From an uncultured delta proteobacterium (GTDB lineage Bacteria > Desulfobacterota > Binatia > DP-6), in assembly GCA_963815115.1 (NCBI GenBank), contig CAWFFN010000007.1, positions 32,001-96,000 on the forward strand: 64,000 nt of DNA, read 5' to 3'. The translations under genes and the position numbers were made by a program. Below are positions 1,131-17,654 of the stretch, piece after piece (the stretch's first letter is position 1; each line of letters begins with the position of its first letter). The notes below the pieces were generated by a model. The model made no database searches. It saw nothing but the letters and a program-made list of their open reading frames with translations, and was not told the origin of the DNA.

Positions 1131-1424
1131 TCACGCGTGGTGCCGGGGCTCGGCCTCGACGGAATTCGTCGGGGTGATCTGGTCCTTGAGCCGCTGGGTT
1201 GCGCCGTCCAGCCGCTCGCCGAGATCGTGGCGGAGCTCGTGCCCGGGCTTGGGTGCGAACAGCAGCGCCAGGGCGCCACCGACCACCGTGCCGAGGGCGA
1301 AGGCCCCGATCATGGTGAACGCGGTGTCGTTGGCGCTGCGCTGCTGCAGGCCGACCCAGTTGAGGAGGTCGTCACGTTCCGGGAGGCGGGTTCCCAGCTG
1401 CTGGGAGAGATCCTTGAGTGTCAT
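1131..1424 (-). CDS. YtxH-domain general stress protein
   Basis: GAFALGTVVGGALALLFAPKPGHELR is the YtxH signature. Confidence 0.8.
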   Translation of the reverse strand: MTLKDLSQQLGTRLPERDDLLNWVGLQQRSANDTAFTMIGAFALGTVVGGALALLFAPKPGHELRHDLGERLDGATQRLKDQITPTNSVEAEPRHHA

Positions 1425-1660
1425 TGATAGCTCCTCTGTTGGTCGAATGCGCCGCGGACCGCCGCGGCGAGGACGTTGCCGGCCATCGCGCGGCCGCCGG
1501 TCATGATGAGCAGCCGCACGAGGCCGGGCGTGAGGCCACCGCCGAGCACGTACCCGGCGGCGAGCGCGAGGCCGAGCGTACGGTACGGGGCCGCCTGCAC
1601 CTCCTGGCGCAGGAAATTCGCGACCTCGTCCGAGCGTCGTTCCACCTCCGAGAACTCCAT
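1421..1660 (-). CDS. Small membrane protein, DUF883/ElaB-like
   Basis: MEFSEVERRSDEVANFLRQEVQAAPYRTLGLALAAGYVLGGG. GGAGG RBS; ATGA overlap with the downstream gene. Confidence 0.65.
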   Translation of the reverse strand: MEFSEVERRSDEVANFLRQEVQAAPYRTLGLALAAGYVLGGGLTPGLVRLLIMTGGRAMAGNVLAAAVRGAFDQQRSYQ

Positions 1661-1664
1661 GTTT

Positions 1665-1859
1665 CTACCTCCCTCTGCCGAGCCACAGGCCGACGACGAA
1701 TGCGCCCGCGAGCCACGCACCCGGGCGCAGCCGAATGGACTCCGAGGGATCGCTCCACGAGCGCGCGGCGACCGAGAGGTCCTGCACCGCGAGCCGCAGC
1801 TCGTGCTTGTGCTGCTCGAGGCTCTGGCGCAGCGCTTCCCGGTTCTCCGGCCTAGCCAT
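1665..1859 (-). CDS. Small hypothetical membrane-anchored protein (coiled coil + C-terminal TM)
   Basis: 64 aa, coupled to its neighbours; ends PGAWLAGAFVVGLWLGRGR. Confidence 0.6.
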   Translation of the reverse strand: MARPENREALRQSLEQHKHELRLAVQDLSVAARSWSDPSESIRLRPGAWLAGAFVVGLWLGRGR

Positions 1860-2202
1860 CCCCGATGTCCTTCAGCCGGTGGCGTGCGCCGACGATGAGA
1901 ACGCCCCCTCCGAGCAGGTTCAGGGCGGCGAGGGCCCCCAGGGTCTGCAGCGCGCCGAACCGCGGCGCCAGGATCTCGAAGGCAGCCATCAGCGCGATCA
2001 CCCATCCGATCGCCAGCAGCACCGTTGCGAGCAACATCAGCGCGCTGTTCCGCAGGGCTCCCGAAAGGGCGGAGGACAGCTCGACGCCGAGCAGGCTCAC
2101 CTCGTCGCCGACCACCTTCTGCGCGGCGTCGACCATCCGGTCGAGGGAATCGGTCAGCGAGGGAGCAGGCCGCTGATCAGAGCCGTTCGCTTGCAGGTGC
2201 AT
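1852..2202 (-). CDS. Holin-X / phage holin superfamily membrane protein (stress-island type)
   Basis: SLTDSLDRMVDAAQKVVGDEVSLLGVEL followed by two TM helices; a usual neighbour of DUF883/YtxH genes. Confidence 0.7.
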   Translation of the reverse strand: MHLQANGSDQRPAPSLTDSLDRMVDAAQKVVGDEVSLLGVELSSALSGALRNSALMLLATVLLAIGWVIALMAAFEILAPRFGALQTLGALAALNLLGGGVLIVGARHRLKDIGDG

Positions 2203-2217
2203 CGTCGTGACGCGATC

Positions 2218-2233
2218 TGCACCTCGCGTGCCA
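2218..2233 (-). promoter_or_regulatory. sigma54 -24/-12 promoter
   Basis: Minus strand TGGCACGCGAGGTGCA (GG-N10-GC), 15 nt upstream of the ATG at 2202. Confidence 0.7.
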
Positions 2234-2343
2234 GGAAGCGGTGGGCCTCAAACGCCTGCCGGCGGCTCGCGAGAGCGACGGGGCCCGCGTGCGCTTTGTA
2301 CGTTCTACTCCGCAGCCATCCGCGATCTGCCGAGAGTCCGTCG

Positions 2344-2475
2344 TCAGCCGGCGATCAGCGCCCAGGTCAGGACGACCAGGCCGGGAACGCCCAGGAGCCA
2401 CGCGAGCAAGAACCGGACGTCGTATTCGCTGCTCAGCGTGGCGTGCGGTCCCGCCGACACTATCTCGGACTTCAT
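2344..2475 (-). CDS. 43-aa single-TM small protein (absent from ORF track)
   Basis: MKSEIVSAGPHATLSSEYDVRFLLAWLLGVPGLVVLTWALIAG. Strong GAGGAGGAG RBS and its own sigma54 site. Confidence 0.7.
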   Translation of the reverse strand: MKSEIVSAGPHATLSSEYDVRFLLAWLLGVPGLVVLTWALIAG

Positions 2476-2520
2476 TTGGCTCCTCCTCGCATCCCCGCTT
2501 GCGACGCTTCGGTTGGCAGG

Positions 2521-2536
2521 AGCGAAGAGCGTGCCA
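2521..2536 (-). promoter_or_regulatory. sigma54 -24/-12 promoter
   Basis: Minus strand TGGCACGCTCTTCGCT (GG-N10-GC), upstream of the 43-aa ORF. Confidence 0.65.
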
Positions 2537-2597
2537 GCGGCGTGACCGGCCGATTTTCAACGGGCGTCGCTCACCCGGCGACCCGCGCGCTGGCGGA

Positions 2598-2609
2598 TTG
2601 TTTCTACAA
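2598..2609. promoter_or_regulatory. Candidate enhancer (UAS), TTGT-N4-ACAA / TTGTAGAAA
   Basis: TTGTTTCTACAA, ~65 bp upstream of the sigma54 site at 2536. The same 9-mer occurs at 7395 and 10533. Confidence 0.55.
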
Positions 2610-2773
2610 ATCACCAGCTTGGCCGGGGGCGGGGATGCCAGGCTCGCGTGCGGGCCTGGCCTCACCTCTGCCGGTGGGGCCATCGTGTGTCATCTCGCGC
2701 TGGCTGCAGATCACGACGGGGCCGCTCGCTCGCGGCGGACACGCTTCCGGCACCGGACACCGAGCGCGAGGGG

Positions 2774-3589
2774 TCACTCGAGACGGATCTCCTGCCCGGC
2801 GTAGTTTCTCGGCCCCACGAAACGCACCATGGCCGGCGGGGAGTCCTTGGTCTGGAAGAAGCTGGTGTCCGGCGCGATCATGTGCACGATGGGGTTGAGC
2901 AGCGGGTTGACGGTCACCCGCATGATGTACTGGACGACGGGGACCGGGTGCCCCGGCCGCTGGACGGTCGACGGATCGCCACGCGACACTTCCATGTCCA
3001 TCTTGCGCGGGCTGGGCGTCGGCACGACGGTATGGAACACGAGCTTGCCGCCTTCCGCGTTGGCGTCGAAGTTCTTCAGCACCAGGTTGATCAGCGGTCC
3101 GAAATAGGTTCCCGGCGGAAGTTCCCCACGCTCGTCGAAGTCCGTCTTGTCCTTGCCCTGACCGTAGAATCCCCAGACGCGACCCGCGCCGACATCGACA
3201 TGCATGTCGACGATCGTCTCTCCCGCGCTGTTCCGGATGATGGACTCGCCGCGCACGGTGCGAAGTGTCTTGCCGATCTTCGCGACCGCAGAATCCTCGT
3301 CGCTGGAGCCGTCGTTGAAGTAGGCGACGCGCTTTGCCTCGAGCGTGTCGCCCCTGCGGCGCTGATTGTAGTGGACGACCCCGATGGGGTCGGTTCCCTC
3401 CTTGCCGAAGATGTTGACGAAGCCGGTCAGCTCGCCCTCGTCGTACGCCATCTTGATCGGGTCGCCCGCGTCCCGGGCACCGGCTCGTGGCGCGAGCGCC
3501 AGAACGAGGAAGAAGATGGACCACCTGACATGTCTGATCGGCATCGTGGACTGCGAGGTCTGGAAGACGCTCGTTCGCCGCGGCGTCAC
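2774..3589 (-). CDS. Secreted hypothetical protein
   Basis: Signal-peptide-like RHVRWSIFFLVLALAPRAGA; protein-like composition; GTGA overlap with the upstream gene. Start is uncertain. Confidence 0.7.
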   Translation of the reverse strand: MTPRRTSVFQTSQSTMPIRHVRWSIFFLVLALAPRAGARDAGDPIKMAYDEGELTGFVNIFGKEGTDPIGVVHYNQRRRGDTLEAKRVAYFNDGSSDEDSAVAKIGKTLRTVRGESIIRNSAGETIVDMHVDVGAGRVWGFYGQGKDKTDFDERGELPPGTYFGPLINLVLKNFDANAEGGKLVFHTVVPTPSPRKMDMEVSRGDPSTVQRPGHPVPVVQYIMRVTVNPLLNPIVHMIAPDTSFFQTKDSPPAMVRFVGPRNYAGQEIRLE

Positions 3590-4110
3590 TCGCCGGCCGT
3601 GTCGTGCAACCCGACGGCCCAGTCCTGGCGGGCTACGTCGACGCTCTGGGCGCCTGCGGCGGCCAGGGCCTCGCGGGCTGCATCGGCCTCGTCCGAGGTC
3701 TCGATCGCGGCAACGAGAAGCGCCCGGCCGTGCCGCAGCGCTTCCTCGTAGACGACCAGCTCGTCGTGCGGAATGCCGAACGACAGCTTGTCCTCCACGA
3801 CGTCACCCGCCACGGCTCCGCCGCCGGCGCCGAGGAGGGCAGCACCGGCGATCCCCGCGATCGCGGCAGCGCCGATGGGCGGAGCCAGCAGGCTCGCGAG
3901 CGCCGCACCGACCGCACCGCCAACCACCCCGCCGACCGCGGCGCCCATCCCGGGCTGCTCCGCGTCGTCCGTCGGCAGCGTGTCGATCTCTCCGCCGGAC
4001 GCGGTCGGTGACACGAGGCGAACGCGCGCACCGGGAACGACGCGAAACACGTCCCGGCCGGCTCGTCGCGCGTCCTCTATCGTTTGGAAGATACCGACGA
4101 CGGCTTGCAT
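3586..4110 (-). CDS. General stress protein, glycine-zipper membrane type (DUF1269/YflT-like)
   Basis: MQAVVGIFQTIEDARRA...GAAVGGVVGGAVGA...GIPHDELVVYEEALRHGRALL. Confidence 0.75.
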   Translation of the reverse strand: MQAVVGIFQTIEDARRAGRDVFRVVPGARVRLVSPTASGGEIDTLPTDDAEQPGMGAAVGGVVGGAVGAALASLLAPPIGAAAIAGIAGAALLGAGGGAVAGDVVEDKLSFGIPHDELVVYEEALRHGRALLVAAIETSDEADAAREALAAAGAQSVDVARQDWAVGLHDTAGE

Positions 4111-4123
4111 GAACCGTTGGTGG

Positions 4124-4139
4124 AGCGAGAACCGTGCCG
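4124..4139 (-). promoter_or_regulatory. sigma54 -24/-12 promoter
   Basis: Minus strand CGGCACGGTTCTCGCT (GG-N10-GC), 13 nt before the ATG at 4110. Confidence 0.6.
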
Positions 4140-4258
4140 CTCGCAAGGGCTGTGCGCGCCCGTGAATCCCGCGTGCATGCCGCCGATCTCTACAACTTAC
4201 AACGCCTTGCCCCGCTGACGGCGTCACGAACGCCGCACCGACTTTGCTCCGCGAGGAC

Positions 4259-4274
4259 CGGCACCGGTCCTGCA
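4259..4274 (+). promoter_or_regulatory. sigma54 -24/-12 promoter of csbD
   Basis: CGGCACCGGTCCTGCA (GG-N10-GC). Confidence 0.65.
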
Positions 4275-4313
4275 TGATCGCTCGTCGGTCCGCCTGGACC
4301 GAAGGAGGAAACG

Positions 4314-4526
4314 ATGAACAAGGACACCCTCAAGGGGCAGTGGAAGCAGTTGAAGGGACAGGTCCGCAAGCAGTGGGGCAAGCTCACTGATGACGACCTG
4401 GATCAGATTCACGGTGACGCAGAGATCCTCGCCGGCAAGATTCAGGAGCGCTACGGCCGGGCGAAGGACGACGCGCAGCGTGAGGTCGACAAGTTCTTCG
4501 AGGATCAGGACCAGCCCCGGGCGTAG
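4314..4526 (+). CDS. csbD: CsbD-family stress protein
   Basis: MNKDTLKGQWKQLKGQVRKQWGKLTDDDL...LAGKIQERYG; AGGAGG RBS. Confidence 0.95.
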   Translation: MNKDTLKGQWKQLKGQVRKQWGKLTDDDLDQIHGDAEILAGKIQERYGRAKDDAQREVDKFFEDQDQPRA

Positions 4527-4732
4527 ACGCCCGGGCGAGCCGGAATCGAATGACCACCTTCCCCACCATCGGCGCCACGCAACGCGGGGGTGGGTTAGGA
4601 GGCGGGGGCCGGGAGTGCTAGCCTCGGGGCGCCCTTCGAACGAGGCGCATGCTCTACAACTCCCGCCGGGAAGGTTCTCCAATCGACACCCGGGTGCAGC
4701 AGAAAATCCGTAGACACACCACGAGGTTGCGC

Positions 4733-4748
4733 TGGCATGACGGTTGCT
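4733..4748 (+). promoter_or_regulatory. sigma54 -24/-12 promoter of the DUF1328 gene
   Basis: TGGCATGACGGTTGCT, near-perfect consensus. Confidence 0.8.
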
Positions 4749-4774
4749 CACCGAGTCCACAGGAGGATTGAACG

Positions 4775-4954
4775 ATGCTGAACTGGGCCGTGACGTTCTT
4801 CGTGATCGCCCTCATCGCGGCGCTGCTGGGTTTCGGTGGAGTGGCGGGGATGTCGGCCAACATCGGTTGGCTACTGGCCGTTCTCGGGGTCGTCGTCCTC
4901 GCGATCGGCTTGCTGAGCCGGGCGCTCGGCGGCGGCCGGAGCGCGCTGCCATAG
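4775..4954 (+). CDS. DUF1328 (UPF0391/YtjA) small membrane protein (absent from ORF track)
   Basis: MLNWAVTFFVIALIAALLGFGGVAGMSANIGWLLAVLGVVVLAIGLLSRALGGGRSALP; AGGAGG RBS. Confidence 0.9.
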   Translation: MLNWAVTFFVIALIAALLGFGGVAGMSANIGWLLAVLGVVVLAIGLLSRALGGGRSALP

Positions 4955-4963
4955 CCGAGCCAA

Positions 4964-5005
4964 GCGAGCCCAGGCACCGGGCGCCGCGCCCGGTGCCTGG
5001 GCTCG
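4964..5005. terminator. Long GC-rich hairpin after the DUF1328 gene
   Basis: CGAGCCCAGGCACCGGGCG-CCG-CGCCCGGTGCCTGGGCTCG inverted repeat; no U-tract. Confidence 0.55.
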
Positions 5006-5143
5006 GCGACGTCTGCAGAGGTCCGGCGATCCGATGCCGCGTGCGCAGGGCCGGGCGGTCCTGCTCGGGGCGAGCATCATGAGGAGAGCGCCTCGCGACG
5101 GCGCTCTGGGGTTGGAGGAGATTCGGATGAAGAGGATGCCATC

Positions 5144-5374
5144 ATGAGACTCGCCACCAGTCGCCGAAATGCGTGGCTGTGCCGCGGGCTCACCGGGGTC
5201 GCCCTGGCGGCGCCGCTCGCCCTCGCTCCGGCACTGCCCGTCACGGTGTATCCGGACGGCGACCGTGCGAAGTCCGCTCGCACGGTCAGGCCCTCGCGCG
5301 ATGTTCCGATCGCCAGCGCGACCCTGAAACCGATGCCGGCACAGCCGGCCGTTCCGCCCGCGCTACCGGAATAG
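5144..5374 (+). CDS. Small exported hypothetical protein
   Basis: 76 aa with a signal-like N-terminus (SRRNAWL...VALAAPLALAPA). Confidence 0.45.
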   Translation: MRLATSRRNAWLCRGLTGVALAAPLALAPALPVTVYPDGDRAKSARTVRPSRDVPIASATLKPMPAQPAVPPALPE

Positions 5375-5385
5375 CACTGGCGTCG

Positions 5386-6744
5386 CTACTCCCGCTTGTA
5401 CACGTTCAAGCGGTTGTAGAGCGTCTTCAAGCTGATCCCGAGCACCTCGGCGGTCTTTTTCTTGTCGCCATCGTAGTGGTCGAGCGTCGCCAGGATGAGG
5501 TGACGCTCCGCTTCGCTGAGCGACGTACCGACCTTGAGCGCCGGCTCGCCGCCACCCGGCCCCGCCCCGCTGCTGACGGTTGGCGCGCCGAGATCGGCGG
5601 GCAGGCTGGTAGCCTCGATCTCCCCCTCGGCCATGATGTAGGCGCGCTGCACGGCGTTCTTCAGCTCGCGCACGTTGCCCGGCCAGTCGTGGCGCTCGAG
5701 TCGTTCGAGTGCGGACGGCGAGAGGCGCTTCTGGGTCGAATCCGCGGCGTTGAGCGCTTCGAGGAAGTGATGGGCCAGCAAGGTGATGTCGCCCTTCCGC
5801 TCGCGCAGAGGCGGAAGGCTGATCGGAAACACGTTCAGCCGGTAGTAGAGGTCCTCGCGGAGCTGGCCCTCACTGACGGATTGCGCCGGCGAGCGATTGG
5901 TCGCGGCGACCACCCGGACGTCGGTGGGAACTGGCTGGTCGCCGCCGATGCGCAGGACCTGACCGGTCTCGAGCACGCGCAGCAACTTCACCTGGAGCTC
6001 GATTGGCATCTCGGTGATCTCGTCCAGGAACAGCGTTCCGCCGGAGGCGCGCTCGAAGTGGCCGCGATGGCGCTGCGCCGCGCCGGTGAAGCTTCCACGC
6101 TCGTGCCCGAACAGCTCGCTCTCGATGAGGTTCGGTGACACGGCCCCGCAGTTGATGGCGAGGAACGGCCCCCGGCGGCGCCGGCTGAGCCCCTGGATCG
6201 TCTCCGCCACGAGCTCCTTGCCGGTTCCACTCTCGCCCGTGACCAGCACCGTCGCCTCGGTCGGCGAGACCTTCGCAACGAGGTCGTACACTTCCTGCAT
6301 GGGCTGTGACGCGCCGATCATCGGGCCGAATCGGCCGAGCTTTCTGAGCTCGTGGCGCAACGAGCCGATCTCGTGGGTGTAGTCGAGCAATCGCGCCACG
6401 TTGGCGAGGACGGTCTTCAGGCGTGGCAGGTCGATGGGTTTGGTCAGGTAGTCGGTCACCCCACGCCGGAGCGCCTCCACGGCCGACTCCACGGTGGCAT
6501 TGCCCGTGATGAGCACCATCTGGGTCTTTCCGGGGTCCTCCTCGAGCACGCTCAGCAGGTCGAGCCCGCTGCCGTCGGGGAGCATGAGATCGCTGAGCAC
6601 CACGTCGGGCATCCGCTCGGCCAGCGCCGCCCGCGCGGTGGCAACGTCGCCCGCCGTCCTGGTGGTGAAGCCCTCGCGCTCCACCAGCCTGGCCAGGGCG
6701 CGCAGCTGGTCGGGGTCGTCGTCGATGAGGAGCGCTTCAGGCAT
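5386..6744 (-). CDS. sigma54-dependent response regulator (NtrC/AtoC family, REC-AAA+-Fis HTH)
   Basis: REC domain (LLIDDD, VLSDLMLP), GESGTGKE, GSFTGA, LFLDEI, WPGNVREL, HTH AEVLGISLKTLYNRL. Confidence 0.95.
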   Translation of the reverse strand: MPEALLIDDDPDQLRALARLVEREGFTTRTAGDVATARAALAERMPDVVLSDLMLPDGSGLDLLSVLEEDPGKTQMVLITGNATVESAVEALRRGVTDYLTKPIDLPRLKTVLANVARLLDYTHEIGSLRHELRKLGRFGPMIGASQPMQEVYDLVAKVSPTEATVLVTGESGTGKELVAETIQGLSRRRRGPFLAINCGAVSPNLIESELFGHERGSFTGAAQRHRGHFERASGGTLFLDEITEMPIELQVKLLRVLETGQVLRIGGDQPVPTDVRVVAATNRSPAQSVSEGQLREDLYYRLNVFPISLPPLRERKGDITLLAHHFLEALNAADSTQKRLSPSALERLERHDWPGNVRELKNAVQRAYIMAEGEIEATSLPADLGAPTVSSGAGPGGGEPALKVGTSLSEAERHLILATLDHYDGDKKKTAEVLGISLKTLYNRLNVYKRE

Positions 6745-7294
6745 CGGGCCCGTGTTCCCCGGGGGGCATCGAGACGTCGGCGCAGCTGCCGTCGGCCCTT
6801 CGCACCCGGACACCCCCGCTGCCGGGCGCCGGCTCGACCTGCACCGAGGAGCCGGAGTCGGCGACCGCGATCGCCTCCAGCAGAGCATCGAGGAGCTCCT
6901 GTCGCCAGCCCTCGAGCGCCGCACCCGCGCACCGCTTCGACGGGACCGGAGTTGCCTCGAGATTGACCTGTCGCGTGGCGGCCAGAGGCCGAACCGCGTC
7001 GACGGTCCTCGCCACGACGCTGGCAGTGTCGGTGTCGTCGGGCGCGTCCGGAAGCGCAGCGAGCGTCAGGAAGGCATCGGTGAGGCGCTGGAGGCGTGCG
7101 CACTGCTCCTTCACCACGGCGACATGCCGTCTCTGGGGCTCGCGAACGGACTCACCGGTGTCGAGGGAAACCGCGAGGAGCTCGAGATGGAGGGTGAGCG
7201 CGTTCAGCACTCCACGCACCTCGTGCGCCGTCGGGCGGGCGAGCCGGGAGAGGCTGGCCATGCGTGCGGAGAAGACGGCGTCGTCGCGTGACAT
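6737..7294 (-). CDS. Sensorless HisKA protein with degenerate ATP-binding domain
   Basis: H-box AHEVRGVLNAL is present. No recognisable N, G1 or G2 boxes. 185 aa; overlaps the regulator start. Confidence 0.65.
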   Translation of the reverse strand: MSRDDAVFSARMASLSRLARPTAHEVRGVLNALTLHLELLAVSLDTGESVREPQRRHVAVVKEQCARLQRLTDAFLTLAALPDAPDDTDTASVVARTVDAVRPLAATRQVNLEATPVPSKRCAGAALEGWRQELLDALLEAIAVADSGSSVQVEPAPGSGGVRVRRADGSCADVSMPPGEHGPDA

Positions 7295-7332
7295 GTTATG
7301 GTCGATGAGGGCGCTCAGCTGCTCACCCCCGG

Positions 7333-7348
7333 CGGCAAAGGTTTTGCA
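7333..7348 (+). promoter_or_regulatory. Possible additional sigma54 site
   Basis: CGGCAAAGGTTTTGCA (GG-N10-GC) in the divergent spacer, ~170 nt before the next start. Confidence 0.4.
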
Positions 7349-7394
7349 TTGCGCTCCGCGTCGCGTCAATCGACGGCCTGCTCGCGGCTCCCGG

Positions 7395-7403
7395 TTGTAG
7401 AAA
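7395..7403 (+). promoter_or_regulatory. Candidate enhancer TTGTAGAAA
   Basis: ~72 bp upstream of the sigma54 site at 7475. Confidence 0.55.
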
Positions 7404-7474
7404 CGACCCCCGGCGTTCCGGCCGAGTCAGCGCAAATCTCCCCGCGAATCCGTCGATGTTTCGGCCGTCGCTCG

Positions 7475-7490
7475 TGGCACGCGGGCTGCA
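7475..7490 (+). promoter_or_regulatory. sigma54 -24/-12 promoter
   Basis: TGGCACGCGGGCTGCA (GG-N10-GC). Confidence 0.75.
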
Positions 7491-7519
7491 TTGAAGTTCC
7501 CCCCGAGGGAGGTTGCCGC

Positions 7520-7954
7520 ATGAAGCGATTCACGTCGGAGGAGACGGAAGACAGGCTTCCGGGGCTGTTCGAGCCCCACACCATCCTGCCGGTACAGTAC
7601 TTCACCCGGTTGCAGCGGACCTCGATCTGGACCGGTGAGCAGCGACTGATGGCGGCCATCCTGGAGGATGCGGTCGCGGTGTGCGGCAAGCGCAGCGCCC
7701 CGAAGACCTCCAAGGCCCGGCAGATCCTGCGCGAGACGCTCCGGTGGCTGCGCAGCAACGACCGGACGTGGACGTTCTCGTTCCTGCGCATCTGCGAGCA
7801 TCTCGATCTGAACCCGAGCGCGATCCGGCGCGGTATCCGCATCCTGCGTGGCGAGGAGATGCCCGAGCCTGCTGGTGCTACCCACATCGGTCACGTTCCC
7901 CAGCCGGACGAAGCAGTGGAGGCCTATCCGGTCAAGCGCGCCGCCGTCGGATGA
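7520..7954 (+). CDS. Conserved-looking hypothetical protein (GEQRLMAAILEDAV...FSFLRICEHLDL)
   Basis: GGGAGG RBS, sigma54 promoter, 144 aa protein-like sequence. Confidence 0.8.
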   Translation: MKRFTSEETEDRLPGLFEPHTILPVQYFTRLQRTSIWTGEQRLMAAILEDAVAVCGKRSAPKTSKARQILRETLRWLRSNDRTWTFSFLRICEHLDLNPSAIRRGIRILRGEEMPEPAGATHIGHVPQPDEAVEAYPVKRAAVG

Positions 7955-8003
7955 CGGGGGACGCCATCGGAGCCCTCCCACGGAGACCTCGAAGGAGCCG
8001 TTG

Positions 8004-8207
8004 ATGACCGAGACGATGAGGCAGCCCCTCCATGCCGCAACCGCCGCAGCGGTCGGTGACGCGGAGTCGCAGGTCGAGCGCCTGCGCGATGGCGTCACGG
8101 ACGCCGACAAGCGCCTCCGGCAGTTCGTGCAGGAGCGGCCACTCACGGCTCTCCTCGCGGCCGCCGTTGCGGGATACATTGCGGCGCGCGTGTTGCGGCG
8201 GCTGTAG
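8004..8207 (+). CDS. DUF883/ElaB-like tail-anchored protein
   Basis: LRQFVQERPLTALLAAAVAGYIAARVL; AAGGAG RBS. Confidence 0.75.
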   Translation: MTETMRQPLHAATAAAVGDAESQVERLRDGVTDADKRLRQFVQERPLTALLAAAVAGYIAARVLRRL

Positions 8208-8261
8208 GCCGACGCGAATCTCAGCGCGGTCGGTGGGCCTCGCGCGGCCTGAGCCGCCGCC

Positions 8262-10379
8262 TCACGCGCGCCGCTCGAGGACGAGAAGGTTGCGTCCGTC
8301 GGCGCGTACGGCGGCTCCGGCGGCATACTCCGGAGCGGGACCCGGCACGAGCTGGGCCGTGTCCACCACCACCTGCCACCTGGTGCCGAGAGACTCGTCG
8401 GGCAGCCTGAAATCCAGTGGCTCCCAGTGAGCGTTCGCGATCAGAAAGAAGCTCTGATCCTGGATGCGCTCGCCTCGCCGCCCCGGGCTCTGGATCGTGT
8501 CACCGTTCAGGAGGACGGCGAGTGACTTGGCGAATCCGGTCGTCCAGTCGTCCTCCGACATCTCGCCGCCGTCCGGCTTGAACCAGACCAGGTCGCGGCC
8601 GCTCGTGCCCCGGATCGCGCGGCCCTGGAACCAGCGCCGCTGCCGGAACACGGGATGCTCCCGGCGGAGCTGGATCAGCCGCCGGGTGAAGGCGTACAGG
8701 CCGAGATCGCCTGCTTCCCAGTCGAACCACGAGAGTTCGTTGTCCTGGCAATAGGCGTTGTTGTTGCCCTGCTGCGTGCGCCCGAGCTCGTCGCCGCCGA
8801 GCAGCATGGGCACGCCCTGCGACAGGAGCAGCGTGGCGAGCAGGTTGCGTACCTGGCGCGCGCGCAGGCCGCTGATCTTGGGGTCGTCCGTGGGTCCTTC
8901 GACACCGCAGTTCCACGAGCGGTTGTGGCTCTCGCCGTCCCGGTTCTCCTCGCCGTTCGCCTCGTTGTGCTTCTCGTCGTAGGAGACCAGGTCGCGCAGC
9001 GTGAAGCCGTCGTGCGCGGTGACGAAGTTCACGCTGGCCGAGGGCGAGCGGCCCTCCGAGGCGTAGAGGTCCGAGCTGCCGGTGAGACGGGACCCGAACT
9101 CCGCCAGCGTGGCGTCGGCGCCCCGCCAGTAATCACGTACGCAGTCGCGATACTTGCCGTTCCACTCCGACCACAGGGGCGGAAAGTTGCCCACCTGGTA
9201 GCCGCCCTCGCCGAGATCCCAGGGCTCCGCGATCAGCTTGACCTGCGAGAGCACGGGGTCCTGGTTGATGATGTCGAAGAAGGCGCCGAGCCGGTCGACG
9301 TCGTGAAGCTCGCGCGCGAGCGTGGACGCCAGGTCGAAGCGAAACCCGTCCACGTGCAGCTCGAGCACCCAGGAGCGCAGGCTGTCCATGATGAGCTGCA
9401 GCGTGCGCGGATGCGTCATGTCGAGCGTGTTCCCGGTCCCGGTGTAGTCCTGGTAGTACCGGCCATCGACGAGCCGGTAGTAGGCGGCGTTGTCGATCCC
9501 GCGGAAGCACAGCGTCGGCCCGAGCTGGTTGCCCTCGGCGGTGTGGTTGTAGACGACGTCCAGGATCACCTCGATGCCGGCGTCGTGCAGGGTACGGACC
9601 ATGGTCTTGAACTCGGTCACCTGCTGTCCCAGGCCGCCCGTCGCGGCATAGCGCACGTCGGGGGCGAAGAAGCCGATCGAGTTGTATCCCCAGTAGTTGG
9701 TGAGTCCGCGATCGACGAGGTGACGATCGGCGACGAAGTGATGGCAGGGCAGGAGCTCGATCGCGGTGACGCCCAGCATGCGCAGGTACTCGATGATCGG
9801 CGGTGAGGCGAGTCCGGCGTAGGTGCCGCGGAGCGCCTCGGGCACCTGGGGGTGACGCATGGTGAACCCCTTCACGTGCACCTCGTAGATCACGGTCTCG
9901 TCGATCGGCCGCCGCAGCGGGCGATCGCTGCCCCACGAGAAGGCCGGGTCGATCACCACCGACTTGGCGACGAAGGGCGCGCTGTCACGGTCGTCGGGGG
10001 CCAGGTCCTCCTCGTCGCCGCCGACGCGGTATCCGAAGACCGCATCGTGCCAGGACACCATGCGGTCGATCGCCCGGGCGTAGGGATCGAGGAGCAGCTT
10101 GGCGGCATTGAAGCGATGGCCAGCAGCGGGCTCGTAGGGCCCCTCCACGCGGTATCCGTAGCGCAAGCCGGGCCGCGCCTCGGGGAGGTAGCAGTGCCAG
10201 ACCTGGTCGTCACGCTCCTCCAGTCGGACGCGTGCCACCTCGCGATTGCCCTCCGCATCGTCGAACAGACACAGCTCGACGCTCGTCGCGTGCTCCGAGA
10301 ACAGGGCGAAATTGACGCCCGCCCCGTCCCAGGTCGCACCCAGCGGATAGGCCGCTCCCGGCCAGACCTTGACGCTCAA
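8262..10379 (-). CDS. glgX: Glycogen debranching enzyme GlgX/TreX
   Basis: [62 protein letters not shown] start. Confidence 0.95.
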
Positions 10380-10450
10380 CCATCGCAGATTGCCGCAACG
10401 CGTAGCGCCAGGCTAGCCCGAACCTGCATCTGCCGCCGGTTTGAATCTCA

Positions 10451-10466
10451 CGGCACGTCGGTTGCT
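10451..10466 (+). promoter_or_regulatory. sigma54 -24/-12 promoter of kinase-treZ-treY
   Basis: CGGCACGTCGGTTGCT. Confidence 0.7.
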
Positions 10467-10532: not shown

Positions 10533-10541
10533 TTGTAGAAA
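10533..10541 (+). promoter_or_regulatory. Candidate enhancer TTGTAGAAA
   Basis: Third exact copy of the 9-mer, in the glgX/kinase spacer. Confidence 0.5.
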
Positions 10542-10585
10542 GCCCCTTTCTCGCCTTCCGGACCGGGTACGCTCGGGAGCTCGGA

Positions 10586-12859
10586 TGCATCTCCCAGGGG
10601 TCGGCGCCGTGGCCCTGGTATCGGCGATCGCGACGATCGCGGCGGGTGCGATGCCGAGCAGCGTGGCCGTCGTGCTCCTGATTGCCGCGGTGGGAGCCGG
10701 CGCCCTCTCGGGGGGCGTCGGGCCGGCCGTCAGTGCGGGGGGCGTTGCGCTGCCCGCCTGGTGGTACATCGGCCTGCGGTTCGACCTCTTCCTGTTCGGC
10801 GCGTTCCTGCTCGGCGGCGTGCTCCTCGCCATGGCGGGCGAGAGTCTGCTTCGCAGCCGGCGGCGCGCGGCCGACCTCGCCGAGGAGCTGGCGCTGACGC
10901 AGCGCAGGCTGGTTCACGAGGCGGAGAGCCATCGCCGCGCCGACCATGCCGAGGCAGCGCTGCGTCACGCACAGGAGCGATTCGACCGGCTCGTCCGCTC
11001 CAACGTCGTGCCCGTGGTGGTCACCGATCATGACGGACGATGCCTGGACGCGAACCCCGCATTCCTGGAGCTCGTCGGGTGCGAAGCGGAGGATCTCGCG
11101 GGCGACGCCGTCCGCTGGCAGGCGCTCTCGTTGCCGGCGGAACGCCTGCTCGACGAGCGCGCCGCCGCCGAGGCAAGGACCCATGGTGCCGCGTCGCCCT
11201 ACGAGCGCACCCTGGTCCGCACGGACGGCCGTCGTGTCCCGGTGCTCGTGGGCGCGCTCGCCATCGCACCCGGCGAGCCAGCGCTGCTCTGGTTCGTGAT
11301 CGACCTCGGTGCCCGCCAAAAGCTGGCGGAGGAGCAGGCGGCCCGCGCCCTGCTCGACGTCATCTTCGAGACGGCGCCCGTCGGTCTCGGGCTCTACGAT
11401 CACGAGCTGCGATTTCTCCGGGTCAATCGCCGGCTCGCCGAGATCAACGGGTTGCCGCCGGAGGCGCAGCTGGGACGGCGCCTCCCGGAGGTGCTGCCGG
11501 AACTCGGCCCCGAGGTGCTCGAGCAGTTCGCGCGCGTCATCGAGACCGGTGAGTCGCTCGAGCACGCGGAAGCGCACGGCCGCACGCCGGCTTCACCCGA
11601 CGAGCGTCATTTCGAGGTGAGCTACTATCCCGTGCGGGCGCCCGGCGCGCCGTTCTTCAGCGTCGCCGCGATCGTCTACGAGGTGACCGATCGCCGGCGG
11701 GCGGAGGAGGAGCGCGAGGCGCTGCTCCGCGAGGCCGAGCGCGCGCGAAGCGAGGCGGAGCTGGCCAGCCGGGCGAAGGACGAGTTCCTCGCGGTCCTCT
11801 CGCACGAGCTGCGGGCCCCTCTGCAAGGCGTGCTGGGGTGGGTGACCCTGCTGCGCGAAGAGCGCCTCGAGGCCAGCCAGCAGGCGCGGGCCCTGCAGGC
11901 GATCGAGCGCAGCACGCGGCTGCAGACCCAGGTCATCAACGACCTGCTGGACGTGTCCCGCATCATCAGCGGCAAGCTGACCGTGGAGGCGCGTCCGCTG
12001 GACGTCACGGCGGCCGTACGCGAGGCGGTCGCCCGCGTCCGGCCGGCCGCGGCCGCGCGCGGGATCACGCTGGACGCCAGCATCGTCGACCGTGGGGTCT
12101 CCCTGGGCGACGCCCAACGCTGGCAGCAGGTGCTGGACAACCTGCTGTCGAATGCGATCAAGTTCACGCCCGCCGGGGGGTCGGATCGCGGTGCGCTGCG
12201 AGCATGCGGGCGAAGAGATCACGATCGTCGTGGAGGACAGCGGCGAGGGGATCGCGCCCGAGTTCCTGCCGCACGTGTTCGAGCGGTTTCGCCAGGCCGA
12301 CGCGAGCAGCTCGCGGCCGCACGGCGGACTCGGTCTCGGCCTGGCGATCGCGCGGCGGCTGGTCGAGCTCCAGGGAGGGCGGATCACCGCGGACAGCGAG
12401 GGCGTGGGACGCGGCGCGAGGTTCACGATCCACCTGCCGATGCACGATCCCGACGCCATCTGTCCCGCGGTCGCGCCGGAGTCGCCGCGCGGCGAGATGA
12501 GGGGACGGCACCTCCTGGTCGTCGAGGACGATCCGGACTCGCGCGAAGCCATCGCGCTGGCCCTCGAGCTGCACGGCGGACACGTGCGAGCCGCCGGATC
12601 CGTCGACGAGGCCCTCGCCCTGCTCGACGACCCGCTCGACGCCGTCCTGAGCGATCTCTCGATGCCGGGGAAGGACGGCTATGCGCTGCTCGAGCGGCTC
12701 CGGGCTCGCGGCGTCGATGCGCCCGTCGTGGCCGTCAGCGGCTTCGCGACGCCGGAGGATCGGGAGCGCGCGCTCGCGGCCGGCTTCAGCGCCCACCTGG
12801 CGAAGCCGGTCGACGTCGACGTGCTGCTCAACACCGTCGCCAGGCTGCTCGGGCGCTGA
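10586..12859 (+). CDS. Membrane hybrid sensor kinase (TM-PAS-PAS-HisKA-HATPase-REC), one apparent frameshift near 12175-12181
   Basis: KDEFLAVLSHELRAPL and NLLSNAIKFTP in one frame; EDSGEGI, GGLGLGLAI and the REC domain in the 12092..12859 frame. The break lies in a G run. Confidence 0.85.
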
Positions 12860-12866
12860 ACGACCG

Positions 12867-14711
12867 ATGAGGCGTGCGCACGACATGCCATTCGGCGCCG
12901 CGCTCTGCGCGGATGGCGGCGTGGCGTTTCGCTTGTGGGCTCCGGGAGCCCGGCGGGTCGACGTGCGACTCGCCGGGAGCGCCGGCCGGCCGATCCCGAT
13001 GACCGGCCCGGACGCGGGCTGGTACGTCGCGCGCAGCGACACCGCCGGTGCCGGCACGCTCTACCAGTTCGTCATCGACGGCGAGCTCGCGGTGCCCGAC
13101 CCTGCGTCCCGCTTCCAGCCGCGTGACGTGCACGGCCCGAGCGAGGTCGTCGATCCCACCGCCTTCGACTGGCACGACACGGCGTGGCATGGACGCCCGT
13201 GGCACGAGAGCGTGCTCTACGAGCTCCACCTGGGCACGTTCACGCCCGCCGGAACGTATGGGGGGGCGGCCGCGCGCCTCGACTACCTGGCCGACCTCGG
13301 CATCACCGCGGTGGAGGTGATGCCGCTCGCCGAGTGCCCCGGGGCGCGCAACTGGGGCTACGACGGCGTGCTCCCGTTCGCGCCCGAGCACACCTACGGG
13401 CGACCCGAGGAGCTGAAGGCCTTCGTCCAGGCGGCGCACGATCGCGGCCTCATGGTCTTCGTCGACGTCGTCTACAATCACTTCGGTCCGGAGGGGAATC
13501 ATCTCCACCGCTATGCGCCGCAGTTCTTCACCGAGCGCCACGCCACCCCGTGGGGGGCGGCCATCGACTTCGACGGCCCGCACAGCCGCACGGTGCGCGA
13601 CTACTTCATCCACAATGCGCTCTACTGGATCGAGGAGTTTCACGTCGACGGGCTGCGCCTCGACGCCGTGCATGCGATCCACGACGACAGCAGGCCCGAC
13701 ATCCTCGCCGAGCTGGCGGCGGCCGTGCACGGCGCAGCGCCGGACCGCCGCGTGCATCTCGTGCTCGAGAACGACGACAACACGGCGCGATATCTCGAGC
13801 GCGACGCCGCCGGCAGGGCGCGGGCGTACGCGGCCCAGTGGAGCGACGACGTCCACCACGTCCTGCACGTGCTGACGACCGGAGAGACGGGCGGCTACTA
13901 CGCCGACCATGCCGCCGCGGCGCGTGCCCGGCTCGGCCGCACGCTCGCCGAGGGCTTCGACTACCAGGGCGAGCACTCGCCACACCGCGGCCGGCGCCGC
14001 GGGCAGCCGAGCGCCCACCTGCCGCCCACCGCCTTCGTCTCGTTCCTTCAGAACCACGATCAGATCGGCAATCGCGCCATGGGCGAGCGCATCGGTTCGC
14101 TGGCGCCGGCGGCGGCCCTTCGTGCCGCCGTCGCGATCGTGCTCCTGTCGCCCTCGATCCCGCTGCTCTTCATGGGGGAGGAGTGGAACGCGCCCGAGCC
14201 GTTCGTCTTCTTCTGCGACGTCGGACCGGAGCTGGCCGATGCGGTGCGAGAAGGCCGCCGGCGAGAGTTCGCGCACTTCCCGGAGTTCGCCGACGAGGCC
14301 GCACGAGCCCGGATTCCGGATCCGCTCGCGCTCGCGACGTACGAGAGCGCCAAGCTCGACTGGTCGCTGCTCTCCGAGCCCGCGCACGGCGCGTGGCTCG
14401 ATCACCATCGTGCGCTGCTGGCCATTCGCCGGCGCGAGATCGTGCCTCGCCTCGCGGGATTGGCGAGGGGCAACGCGGAGCACGCGGTGCACGGCGGCAA
14501 GGTCGTCGAGGTGCGCTGGCGGCTCCGGGAGGGCGCGGTGCTGCAGCTCCTCGCATGGCTCGGGGCGGAGCCCATCGACGGTCTGGCGCTGCGGCTCGCC
14601 GGACGCGCGCTCCACTCGACCGCGCCCGGCGTCGTCGCGGCCGGAGAGATTCACGCGCTGCCGCCGTGGTTCGTGAGCTTCTCGCTGGCGGCGCCCGCGG
14701 GGGCGGGGTGA
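12867..14711 (+). CDS. treZ: Malto-oligosyltrehalose trehalohydrolase
   Basis: FRLWAP, PDPASRFQPRDVHGPS, NWGYDGV, DVVYNHFGPEGN, DGLRLDAVHAI, LQNHDQIGNRA. Confidence 0.95.
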   Translation: MRRAHDMPFGAALCADGGVAFRLWAPGARRVDVRLAGSAGRPIPMTGPDAGWYVARSDTAGAGTLYQFVIDGELAVPDPASRFQPRDVHGPSEVVDPTAFDWHDTAWHGRPWHESVLYELHLGTFTPAGTYGGAAARLDYLADLGITAVEVMPLAECPGARNWGYDGVLPFAPEHTYGRPEELKAFVQAAHDRGLMVFVDVVYNHFGPEGNHLHRYAPQFFTERHATPWGAAIDFDGPHSRTVRDYFIHNALYWIEEFHVDGLRLDAVHAIHDDSRPDILAELAAAVHGAAPDRRVHLVLENDDNTARYLERDAAGRARAYAAQWSDDVHHVLHVLTTGETGGYYADHAAAARARLGRTLAEGFDYQGEHSPHRGRRRGQPSAHLPPTAFVSFLQNHDQIGNRAMGERIGSLAPAAALRAAVAIVLLSPSIPLLFMGEEWNAPEPFVFFCDVGPELADAVREGRRREFAHFPEFADEAARARIPDPLALATYESAKLDWSLLSEPAHGAWLDHHRALLAIRRREIVPRLAGLARGNAEHAVHGGKVVEVRWRLREGAVLQLLAWLGAEPIDGLALRLAGRALHSTAPGVVAAGEIHALPPWFVSFSLAAPAGAG

Positions 14712-17654
14712 CGGCGGATCTCGACGAGGCCGCGGCCTCCTCGTCGTCGAGCAGCCCGCGCTCCCGTTCCGAAGGAGCGGCGGGGGCAGCGAGCGGGCTG
14801 GCGCTCCCGCGCTCGACCTATCGCCTCCAGTTGAGTCCCCACTTCACGCTCCGGAACGCCCTCGACGCCGTTCCCTATCTCGACGCGCTCGGCATCAGCC
14901 ACGTCTATGCCTCGCCCTTCCTGAAGGCGCGCCCCGGCAGCGAGCACGGCTACGACATCACCGATCACAACGCTCTCAACCCGGAGATCGGCGACTGGGA
15001 CGACTTCGTACGCTTCAGCGATGCCCTGGGCGCCCGCGCGATGGGGCTGATTCTCGATTTCGTTCCCAACCACATGGGGATCGGCAAGGCGGACAACGCC
15101 TGGTGGCTGGACGTCCTCGAGTGGGGCAGGGCGTCGCCCTACAGCGACTACTTCGACATCGACTGGATGCCCGCGCAGCCGTGGCTGAGGGGCAGGGTGC
15201 TGCTTCCCATCCTCGGGGACCACTACGGCGTCGTCCTGACGCGCGGCGAGCTGACCCTCCGGTTCGCTGCCGAGGAGGGCACGCTCAGCGTCTGGTATCA
15301 CGACCACCGGCTGCCGCTGCGCCCCGGCTCGTACGCCGCCGTGATCCGGCGCGGCCTCGGAGCCGGGCGGGCCGGTGCCGACGGGGCCGAGTCCACCTTC
15401 GAGCGGATCGCACGTGATCTTGGTCGCGCCGACCGGCCGACCCGGCGGCGCGAGGAAGCGCACCGCCAGGTGGCGGCGCTCCAGGCCGATCTCGGCGCGC
15501 TCTGTGCCGGCCATGCCGAGGCGGCCCGGTTCATGGCCGACGCGACCGCTGCATTCAACGGCACCGCCGGCGATGCGGAGAGCTTCCGGGCGCTGCACGC
15601 GTTGCTCGAGCGCCAGCACTACCGGCTGGCCTTCTGGCGGGTCGGCGCCGACGAGATCAACTACCGGCGCTTCTTCAACATCAACGAGCTCGCCGGCATT
15701 CGCATGGAGAACCGCACGCTCTTCGACGCCGCACACCGCCTGCTCGGTCGCATGATCCGGGAAGGCCGCGTGCAGGGCATCCGACTCGACCACATCGACG
15801 GCTTGTTCGATCCCCGGGGCTACTGCCGCAAGCTGCAGGCGTTCGCACGGGCGAACGCCTCGCATGGCGATCCGGACGGACGGCGGCGATTCTACGTCGT
15901 GGTCGAGAAGATTCTCGCGCATCACGAGACGCTGCGATCGGACTGGGAGATTGCCGGCACGACGGGGTACGATTTCACGAGCCTGGTCAACGGTCTCTTC
16001 GTCGATCCCGCCAGCGAGAGCACCTGGGACCTGCTCTATCGCGACTTCGTCGGCGATCGGGGGCCGTTCCGGGACATGGTGCTGGCGGCCAAGGACACGG
16101 TGATCGAGACGCTGCTGTCGGGTGAGCTGAACGTCCTCGCCAACGCGCTCGAGCGCATCGCCGAACGGGACTGGGGCACGCGCGACTACACGATGAAGCG
16201 CCTGCGCGATGCGCTGAAGGCCGTCGTGTCGTACTTCCCCGTCTATCGCACGTACGTCAGCGAGCGCGAGACCTCGGCGGAGGATCGGCGCGACATCGAC
16301 TGGGCGGTCGAGCAGGCCCGGCGGAGCTGGCGCGGAGCCGACCGCGAGGTCCTGGACTTCGTGCACGACGCGCTCACCGGCGATCTCGCCGGGCGCGGGA
16401 AGTCGTTCCGGCGCAGCGAGGTGCTGCGCTTCGCCATGCGCTTCCAGCAGTACACCGGTCCGATCATGGCCAAATCGATGGAGGACACTGCCTTCTATCG
16501 CTATCCCCGTCTGCTCTCTCTCAACGAGGTGGGCAGCGATCCGCGGCAATTCGGGGTGTCGGTGGCGGCGTTCCACCATGCCAACCAGCAACGCGCGCGG
16601 GACTGGCCGCATTCGATGCTCACGACCGCCACCCACGACACCAAGCGGGGGGAGGATGCGCGGCTCCGCATCGATGCCCTGTCGGAGATGCCGGCGCAAT
16701 GGCGGCCGCGGCGTGCGGCGCTGGTCCGAGCTCGCCCGTTCCGTGCGGCGCGAGATCGAGGGCTCGCCCGCGCCGTCGCCGGTCGACGAGTTCATGATCT
16801 ACCAGACGTTGCTCGGCGCATGGCCCGTGGAGCTCCTCGGTGGATCGCCGGATCGTGCGGCGCTCGCCGGCTTTCTCGCCCGGATCGAGCGCTACGTGAT
16901 CAAGGCGGTGCGCGAGGCCAAGGTCGTGAGCAGCTGGGAGAATCCCGCGGAGGCGTACGAGGCGGCCTGCATCGGGTTCGTGCGCGGTATCTTGAACCCG
17001 GCCCATCCCGTCCTGGCCGATCTCTCCGGGTTTGCCGAGCGGGTCGCGTTCGTCGGCATGCTGAGCGGACTCGCGCAGCTCGTGCTGCGGCTGACCGCCC
17101 CCGGGGTTGCCGACACGTATCAGGGCACCGAGCTGTGGGACCTGAGCCTCGTCGACCCCGACAACCGCGCGCCGGTCGACTTCGCCGCACGAAGCCGGCT
17201 GCTGGAGGAGCAGCAGCCGGCCGCGAGCGTGGAGGAGGTGAGCGCTGCGCTCGCGACCTGGTCGGACGGCCGGATCAAGATGCTGGTCCTGCATCGGCTG
17301 CTTCGGCTGCGCCGTCGCCTGGCCGAGGTCTGGCTGGAGGGGAGCTACGACTCGCTCGCCACCTCCGGCGCGCACGCGGACCGCCTCGTGGCCTTCGCCC
17401 GACGGCATGGCGCCGAGCGCATCGTCGTCGTCGCGGGGCGGCTGTTCGGCACGCTCCTGGCGACCGATGCGCGTCGCTATGACGGGAGCGTGTGGGAGGA
17501 CAGTGCGGTCGTGCGGGAGCCGGATCTCGTCGGCACCTGGCAGGACACCCTCACCGGCGCGCCGGTCGAGTTCGCGGAGGGCGGCTCCGGCCTGCCCGCG
17601 GCCGGGGTCCTGTCCGTGCTGCCGGTCGCGGTGCTGGTGCGCGGGCTGGAGTGA
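14708..17654 (+). CDS. treY: Malto-oligosyltrehalose synthase, one apparent frameshift near 16700-16715
   Basis: PRSTYRLQL, GSEHGYDITDH, DFVPNHMG, INYRRFFNINELAG, GIRLDHIDGL, TATHDTKRGED. C-terminus PGVADTYQGTELWDLSLVDPDNR is in a second frame. Confidence 0.9.

Follow-up and report, generated by a model that had tools for sequence, protein, structure and literature searches.

A putative sigma-54 stress regulon with its own activators in an uncultured Binatia bacterium

General stress responses of bacteria are taught as the work of alternative sigma factors of the sigma-70 family, namely SigB in Bacillus, RpoS in Proteobacteria and EcfG, with PhyR, in Alphaproteobacteria. The outputs of these systems overlap with those of the locus described here (CsbD, YtxH, YflT, BON/OsmY, DUF1328, trehalose synthesis and Ku), whereas their control lies with a sigma-70-family factor and here would lie with the sigma-54 holoenzyme and an ATP-dependent activator. 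The locus is an island at the start of the window, by which we mean the whole stretch of 64,000 nucleotides that was analysed (positions 32001-96000 of contig C7 from the 6.9-Mb genome of an uncultured Binatia bacterium, 70% GC in 12 contigs). Stress-protection, DNA-repair and trehalose genes of this soil-type host appear to be switched on together by sigma-54 and a local enhancer-binding protein (EBP), here called EBP1, through promoters that share a short upstream element.

Among sigma-54 systems, those of the NtrC family (NtrB/NtrC, ZraS/ZraR, AtoS/AtoC) are alike in the combination of a receiver (REC), an AAA+ and an HTH_8 domain in the activator, in the GG/GC promoter and in an activator site around -70 to -130. 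However, their targets are nitrogen, zinc and acetoacetate genes, while the predicted targets here are small proteins of the general-stress type, Ku and SodC; EBP1 also stays below the equivalog cut-offs of its best NCBIfam matches, ntrC (411.8 vs. 558.6 bits) and AtoC (408.7 vs. 714 bits), and the element here is a single site of 8-9 bp. Dedicated sigma-54 stress responses exist in Escherichia coli (PspF/phage shock, RtcR, NorR, ZraR, GlrR), but each of these modules consists of one to a few operons with genes unrelated to those of the island. PspF has no N-terminal regulatory domain, as is the case for EBP2, a second activator encoded 13 kb upstream of the window (PspF score 260.3 vs. cut-off 443.55 bits). 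A comparable set of components (hybrid kinase, small histidine phosphotransfer protein, receiver-bearing sigma-54 activator) makes up the ShkA-ShpA-TacA relay of Caulobacter. Like Spo0B and ChpT, a 186-aa protein encoded next to EBP1 has a HisKA-like H-box and a truncated C-terminal part lacking the ATP lid (no HATPase_c match); unlike in these proteins, its phosphotransfer role is presumed, and its HisKA match (PF00512, 26.7 bits) lies 0.2 bits under the Pfam cut-off of 26.9.

An earlier note on this DNA had listed seven GG-N10-GC sites just upstream of start codons. All of them are present (Table 1), lie in spacers, are oriented toward a start codon, and score 9-11 of 12 when each GG-N10-GC is compared to the 12-position consensus TGGCACG-N4-TTGCW. 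Genes were called with a purpose-written simple caller trained on open reading frames (ORFs) with GC1>GC2. Since the bare GG-N10-GC carries no information in DNA of 70% GC, one might suppose that the matches arose by chance and that the genes use ordinary sigma-70 promoters, and the number of near-consensus matches in the window is indeed no higher than in shuffled sequence: TGGCAC-N5-TTGC with at most one mismatch occurs 5 times vs. 2.9 ± 1.5 (19 of 100 shuffles reach 5), and with up to three mismatches allowed there is no excess either (482 vs. 502). The promoter signal is placement and not count, as the earlier note had argued. All five of these matches fall within 2219-10465, in spacers and facing a start codon. 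Genome-wide, 79 of the 91 sites scoring at least 11/12 are intergenic, compared to 12.1% of the DNA, and 64 of the 91 lie at most 200 nt upstream of a gene call on the same strand. Given in addition that the boxes are kept at orthologous promoters while their flanks diverge, and that they co-occur with a specific upstream element (both described below), we consider an origin by chance extremely improbable.

The genome holds roughly 90-290 sigma-54-like promoters and about 38 full-length EBP genes, so that the use of sigma-54 is pervasive and not specific to the island. Sites are nevertheless clustered: only nine 30-kb bins in the whole genome contain five or more of them (14 in the densest bin), and the island bins of C7 are among these nine. 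A single copy of rpoN was found, on contig C9 (PF04552, 208 bits; TIGR02395, 449 bits vs. cut-off 277).

At least 14 promoters share a second cis element, an 8-9 bp pseudo-palindrome TT[G/C]TA[G/C]AA(A), whose centre is located 43-105 nt upstream of the promoter 16-mer, which corresponds to a position of roughly -70 to -130 relative to the predicted start; the start codon of these promoters follows 9-58 nt past the 16-mer. It was first read as an AT-rich word, TTGTAGAAA, near most promoters (13 copies genome-wide), and takes the form of a perfect palindrome, TTTGTACAAA, at two of them. From the other ~190 sigma-54-like sites the element is nearly absent. An unbiased k-mer comparison set the 130-nt regions preceding 14 island sites against those of 186 other sigma-54-like sites; TCTACAA/TTGTAGA was found at 8/14 vs. 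2/186 (Fisher p=2e-9), and no other k-mer came near this enrichment. A position weight matrix (PWM) built from nine copies and applied at a threshold of at least 14 gave 18 intergenic loci, 12 of which sit 25-125 nt upstream of a sigma-54-like site (null expectation 2.8%), in contrast to none of 51 intragenic matches. The training copies were themselves promoter-linked, so a fair estimate has to come from the non-training loci, 4 of 9 (p=7e-5). Readings of the element as a NifA-type site (TGT-N10-ACA) or an IHF site (WATCAA-N4-TTR) were rejected, as by eye neither consensus matched.

Two genomes of the same family as the host, a 'Candidatus Binatia' metagenome-assembled genome (MAG; L001), whose activator is the nearest titled relative of EBP1 (73% identity), and G143, carry syntenic islands, with the restriction that the related genomes used for comparison are not independent of one another. 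The -24/-12 boxes of the promoter of the DUF1328 gene are conserved in both. When the promoters of g144, a gene for a 144-aa helical protein, were aligned from the host, L001, G143 and a host paralogue on contig C12, just three blocks turned out to be conserved (element, -24/-12 boxes and ribosome-binding site), whereas the flanks diverge; in three of the four, namely the copy in the window, its C12 paralogue and that of G143, the element starts 83-84 nt ahead of the promoter, and in L001 it is inverted. The csbD promoter of G143 reads CGGCACCGCTCGTGCA (vs. CGGCACCGGTCCTGCA here) and is preceded by TCTACACTTTACAA (vs. TCTACAACTTACAA in the host), the pattern TCTACA-N-YTTACAA being kept. The conservation that the earlier note had asked to check is thus present at these orthologous promoters.

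The NtrC-type activator noted earlier in the middle of the island, EBP1, has an intact receiver (PF00072, 85.1 bits), intact Walker motifs in its AAA+ domain (PF00158, 229.9 bits) and an HTH_8 domain (PF02954, 43.5 bits), and its GSFTGA loop is invariant across 8 aligned activator sequences. EBP2 consists of AAA+ and HTH domains without a receiver, is 61% identical to EBP1 over these domains and has the same ISLKTLYNRLN recognition helix; its own gene is preceded by a sigma-54 site and an element (PWM 21.8). As there is no sigma-54 site on the strand of the operon of EBP1 and the HisKA-only protein, this operon is probably sigma-70 driven. The HisKA-only protein is a candidate phosphotransferase of the Spo0B/ChpT kind. 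The circuit that we propose would start from hybrid kinases (the PAS-PAS kinase of the island and a CHASE3-PAS kinase on C12) passing phosphate to EBP1, probably via the HisKA-only protein. Phosphorylated EBP1 would bind the TTGTAGAAA element and open sigma-54 closed complexes; EBP2 would bind the same element, run the regulon jointly with EBP1 and, having no regulatory domain, could act as an amplifier. Because EBP2, the kinase and a gene for a REC-only protein carry the same element and sigma-54 site, induction would reinforce itself.

The earlier note had taken the island to be self-contained. The predicted regulon unit is not: it extends some 15 kb beyond the upstream edge of the window, into the DNA where the second activator is encoded; matrix matches to the upstream element revealed four or more distal members, located on C7 and C12; and rpoN lies on C9. 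In the window, the 2218 promoter would serve a leftward operon of genes for the Holin-X protein, the 64-aa and 79-aa proteins and YtxH, and the 4124 promoter the genes for the 174-aa Gly-rich and then the 256-aa protein. Together with CsbD, DUF1328 and small membrane peptides these would form the window outputs, to which TreZ and TreY may be added, although in the predicted arrangement only transcription reading through from the kinase promoter would reach them. Upstream outputs would be Ku, SodC, BON, YflT, DUF6496 and DUF748, and distal ones topoisomerase IB and hemerythrin. LigD (C7:27524-30178), 4 kb from the putatively sigma-54-driven Ku gene, has no sigma-54-like site of its own. Of the gene names proposed earlier, CsbD, YtxH, DUF1328, GlgX, TreZ and TreY-like agree with Pfam; DUF883/ElaB could not be confirmed, with no Pfam hit for either 8004-8207 (E<=0.1) or 1421-1663 (E<=0.01). 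The claim that this gene set is wired to sigma-54 and a local EBP holds for its core, as judged from sequence, because of the placement of the sites, their extended consensus, the shared upstream element and the footprints in relatives. It does not extend to GlgX, which was dropped as a regulon member (best sigma-54 score on its strand 7/12), nor to the unconfirmed DUF883.

Orthologues of EBP1 with 52-59% identity occur beside sigma-54-like sites in Acidobacteriota, Burkholderiales and Gammaproteobacteria. The predicted targets of these sites are a BON lipoprotein and topoisomerase IB in an Acidobacteriota MAG, OtsA (GT20) in Paraburkholderia, a Transgly_assoc (YeaQ-type) protein in a beta-proteobacterial MAG, BON and PRC-barrel proteins in a gamma-proteobacterial MAG (DUF1328 and CsbD nearby) and DUF1328 in a Burkholderiales MAG (CsbD nearby). 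By tblastn, CsbD was detected at 3 of the 8 loci with at least 50% EBP1 identity and at none of 72 other loci. At L013, from a Burkholderiales MAG, TTTGTAGAATTGCC and CTTGTAAGAAAGG lie between two divergent sigma-54 sites. Megaplasmids of Ralstonia carry an orthologue with 57% identity (137 of 296 matching records of a plasmid collection). In Ralstonia solanacearum, the megaplasmid rpoN2 locus (Rsp1667, Rsp1668, Rsp1671) resembles our locus in combining an EBP1 orthologue, a REC-less second EBP and a hybrid kinase, and differs in having its own second rpoN, where the host genome has only one. A DUF1328-DUF883_C-BrkB operon is located there behind a sigma-54 site (DUF883_C at 25.5 bits, below the cut-off of 27). 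At the rpoN2 promoter, ATGTAGAAACG precedes the sigma-54-type site TGGCACAGCCTTTGCA (L135, an R. solanacearum megaplasmid, 6329-6344, minus strand) by about 55 nt. With such a site in front of rpoN2, the second sigma-54 would be made only once sigma-54 holoenzyme and activator are active. The EBP table of PMC4676750 gives Rsp1667 and Rsp1668 without name or function, their predicted targets in that source being Rsp1668 and RpoN2, and the word "stress" was not found in the main text of PMC4371752. Among culturable bacteria, Paraburkholderia sabiae LMG 24235 and Cupriavidus campinensis also carry such a module.

Taken together, we think it likely that the island belongs to a sigma-54 stress/dormancy regulon that is controlled by a phosphorelay and run by EBP1 and EBP2. 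A number of observations weigh against this reading. The gene calls come from a crude home-made caller, and the training of the PWM is partly circular, a problem that only the k-mer comparison and the non-training subset escape. With about 38 EBP genes in the genome, another activator could serve some of the island promoters, and group-2-like sigma-70 factors exist. For an NtrC-type activator tandem dyads would be typical, but the element is one short site, and its spacing shows no helical phasing; it lies downstream of the promoter at the kinase gene (10451), is present only as degenerate copies at the 2218 and C7:25674 promoters, and is missing from those at C7:17092 and C7:25860. At loci L002 to L006 no clear copy lies between genes, even though the recognition helix is invariant. 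Finally, the local hybrid kinase carries a 1-nt frame break at a G6 run (12174-12179) inside HATPase_c, its halves being in register with the C12 paralogue; an assembly indel would explain it, as would a real, possibly phase-variable, break.

Several of these points would also fit a different situation, in which the sigma-54 promoters are genuine but the binder of the TTGTAGAAA element is a bending protein of the IHF/HU type, a repressor or one of the other EBPs, and the island is a neighbourhood rather than one regulon. The element is short, single and mostly asymmetric, its spacing is unphased, the many EBP genes offer other candidate binders, and a clear copy is missing from most of the orthologous loci in distant genomes. 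Sigma-54 promoters often have an IHF site between enhancer and promoter. However, because it occurs at 8 of 14 island sites and at only 2 of 186 others, the element is not a general architectural feature; it also travels with EBP1 orthologues to the Burkholderiales MAG and to the Ralstonia rpoN2 promoter, and precedes EBP2 itself. We regard this explanation as unlikely.

The regulon run by EBP1 and EBP2 need not be the sole stress route of the host. Two ORFs pass the RpoD cut-off and FliA is present; no ORF reaches the cut-offs for SigB/F/G and there is no RpoS equivalog over its cut-off, so that classical RpoS and SigB, about whose absence the earlier note had asked, were not found. However, two group-2-like sigma-70 ORFs that pass no cut-off (RpoS scores 250 and 262 vs. 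378.7) and an RpoH-like ORF exist, and other stress sigma factors may therefore be present. About 24 ECF-type matches were found as well, and among the nine sigma-70_r2 ORFs, the only ones read by eye, there was no fusion of a sigma-like domain with REC (PhyR-type). The view of the earlier note that such control had not been described agrees with literature searches on stress-gene and sigma-54 terms, in which no RpoN/EBP stress regulon of CsbD, BON, DUF1328, Ku or trehalose genes was found, although supplementary regulon tables could hide such genes; the csbD passages of PMC13101641 and PMC10782981 have no bearing on such a regulon.

Judged by its genes, the regulon may be triggered by desiccation, osmotic stress, stationary phase or dormancy. 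An alternative is that the island serves no general stress response but one reserved for a single condition (desiccation, osmotic stress or a resting stage), akin to the EBP-driven sporulation genes of myxobacteria. Ku beside LigD, enzymes for trehalose from glycogen, SodC, BON and small hydrophilic proteins form a combination typical of desiccation or dormancy, and sensing would occur through PAS and CHASE3 hybrid kinases and not through a partner-switching module. A paper on spore formation in Myxococcus xanthus contains the terms sigma 54, trehalose, desiccation and enhancer binding protein. The sequence itself, however, gives no way to tell one trigger from many, and at least two different hybrid kinases adjoin regulon members, which would fit several inputs; a single-condition response is a serious possibility, but in our opinion a rather doubtful one.

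Table 1. Sites, elements and genes of the island and of loci linked to it. Promoters and what they drive are predictions. Plain numbers are window positions; other positions carry the contig or locus. Site scores are out of 12 consensus positions.
Feature	Position	Strand	Remarks
Sigma-54 promoter TGGCACGCGAGGTGCA	2218-2233	-	11/12
Sigma-54 promoter TGGCACGCTCTTCGCT	2521-2536	-	11/12
Sigma-54 promoter CGGCACGGTTCTCGCT	4124-4139	-	10/12
Sigma-54 promoter CGGCACCGGTCCTGCA	4259-4274	+	9/12, weakest of the noted sites
Sigma-54 promoter TGGCATGACGGTTGCT	4733-4748	+	11/12
Sigma-54 promoter TGGCACGCGGGCTGCA	7475-7490	+	11/12
Sigma-54 promoter CGGCACGTCGGTTGCT	10451-10466	+	11/12
Element CTTTGTACGTTCTAC, degenerate	2294..2308		PWM only 3.9
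Element TGATTTGTAGAAACAA	2598..2613		PWM 22.6; centre 69 nt before 16-mer
Element TAAGTTGTAGAGATCG, + strand TCTACAACTTACAA	4184..4199		common to divergent 4124 and 4259 promoters
Element GGAGTTGTAGAGCATG	4648..4663		PWM 16.6
Element CCGGTTGTAGAAACGA	7391..7406		PWM 20.8; conserved block in relatives
Element TTGTAGAAA	10529..10544		downstream of 10451 promoter, in kinase leader
YtxH-like protein, last gene of 5-gene operon	1131..1424	-	PF12732, 42.7 bits
79-aa protein, no known family	1421..1660	-	gene call; no Pfam hit; orthologues in L001 and G143
64-aa protein, no known family	1665..1859	-	orthologues with 59% and 47% identity
Holin-X family membrane protein (PF07332), first gene of operon	1852..2202	-	ATG 16 nt past 16-mer
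43-aa membrane peptide	2344..2475	-	gene call; strong ribosome-binding site; from 2521 promoter
256-aa protein, no Pfam family	2774..3544	-	53% (L001) and 51% (G143) identity
174-aa Gly/Ala-rich protein, no Pfam family	3586..4110	-	ATG 14 nt past 16-mer
CsbD	4314..4526	+	PF05532, 71.2 bits; from 4259 promoter
DUF1328 (YtjA-like)	4775..4954	+	PF07043, 41.6 bits; from 4733 promoter
EBP1: REC, sigma-54 AAA+ (GSFTGA), HTH_8	5386..6744	-	Pfam domains
186-aa HisKA-only protein, no ATPase domain	6737..7297	-	overlaps EBP1 start; orthologue in L001
g144, 144-aa helical protein, unnamed class-restricted family	7520..7954	+	13 genome copies; from 7475 promoter
67-aa protein, C-terminal hydrophobic tail	8004..8207	+	3' of g144; DUF883 unconfirmed
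GlgX-type debranching enzyme	8262..10379	-	Pfam domains; divergent neighbour
Hybrid histidine kinase (transmembrane, PAS, PAS, HisKA, HATPase, REC)	10585..12859	+	frame break in G6 run
TreZ-like enzyme	12885..14711	+	domains and gene call; 26 nt past kinase gene
TreY-like enzyme (alpha-amylase domains)	14666..17482	+	domains and gene call; overlaps TreZ end
Sigma-54 site	C7:17611		drives DUF6496
Sigma-54 site	C7:18738		drives EBP2
Sigma-54 site	C7:20218		drives BON-YflT pair
Sigma-54 sites, divergent	C7:22509 and 22612		drive DUF748 and Ku
Sigma-54 site	C7:25674		drives operon DUF6496, cytochrome c, CBS, Cu/Zn-SOD (SodC)
Sigma-54 site	C7:26734		drives REC-only protein
Distal: topoisomerase IB	C7:683069		element near sigma-54-like site
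Distal: hemerythrin	C7:743375		element near sigma-54-like site
Distal: g144 paralogue	C12:527239		beside DUF1328 paralogue and CHASE3 hybrid kinase
Distal: GDSL hydrolase	C12:105985
Codon-embedded element and site	C7:17611-17740
Codon-embedded element and site	G143:C8 about 300400-300530
Codon-embedded element and site	L009:11312-11447
Codon-embedded element and site	L135:10300-10414

Members of the g144 family turned up in each of the 9 other genomes of this class that were searched, and in 17 of 301 genomes in a sample of the phylum. No Pfam family covers it, no PDB sequence matches better than E=0.6, and its structural model (mean predicted local distance difference test score 75) has no Foldseek match at E<=0.001; it is also unrelated to a 152-aa protein of Ralstonia. 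Of the 13 copies in the host, 7 have a sigma-54-like site 22-73 nt upstream and only two the TTGTAGA element. The 12 paralogues include those at C12:526875-527204 and C9:1645244-1645582. The former belongs to a second small locus (C12:526800-530000; L084), in which a gene for a CHASE3-PAS hybrid kinase is followed by a 12/12 sigma-54 site and a DUF1328 paralogue, past which a sigma-54 site with element precedes the g144 paralogue.

In the activator genes, the codons of the T-L-Y-N-R-L stretch of the recognition helix spell GTTGTAGAG or GTTGTACAG, that is, the upstream element itself, and in four genomes this codon-embedded copy has a sigma-54 site 87-120 nt downstream, directly past the activator gene. 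This may be chance, or the copy may act as an enhancer within coding sequence.

Several sigma-54 promoters nearly abut the start codon (2202 and 4110 in the window; C7:22499, 22637 and 26719). At Ku and DUF748 the A of the ATG is the 10th base past the 16-mer, and genome-wide the called start lies 8-17 nt past the 16-mer at 18 of 82 sites scoring at least 11. Messenger RNA from such start-adjacent promoters would be leaderless or have a leader of at most 5 nt; we are not aware of any account of leaderless sigma-54 transcripts. Some sigma-54-like sites occur in identical form, and with identical scores of the downstream gene, on more than one contig, namely at C6:11970 and C7:12368, and likewise at C5:1216606, C8:779422 and C7:1232238, which suggests a duplicated segment or redundant small contigs in the case of C6 and the start of C7, and a repeated element in three copies in the case of C5, C8 and C7.

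What is new here is a predicted sigma-54/EBP regulon with new gene content, a new activator family, a reach across phyla and a connection to the unexplained rpoN2 of Ralstonia. A broader proposal, which we put forward tentatively and hold to be slightly more doubtful than not, is that an uncharacterised NtrC-type orthologous group, with members in Binatia-like bacteria, Acidobacteriota, Burkholderiales and Gammaproteobacteria, runs a sigma-54 general-stress/desiccation regulon via a TGTAGAA-type enhancer, that this would be the first response of the general-stress type on sigma-54, that the same module is the missing job of the Ralstonia RpoN2, and that about one fifth of the strong sigma-54 promoters of the host are leaderless or nearly so.

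The promoter grammar, composed of the element, the -24/-12 boxes and a ribosome-binding site or leaderless start, is compact enough for direct testing in a heterologous host. As sigma-54 promoters are silent without an ATP-driven activator, stress outputs placed behind them would be under tight, switch-like control. If this holds true, it would represent a third regulatory logic for stress protection, would assign a function to a widespread unnamed family of activators, and would offer a hypothesis for why some bacteria, including Ralstonia, keep a second rpoN without known phenotype.

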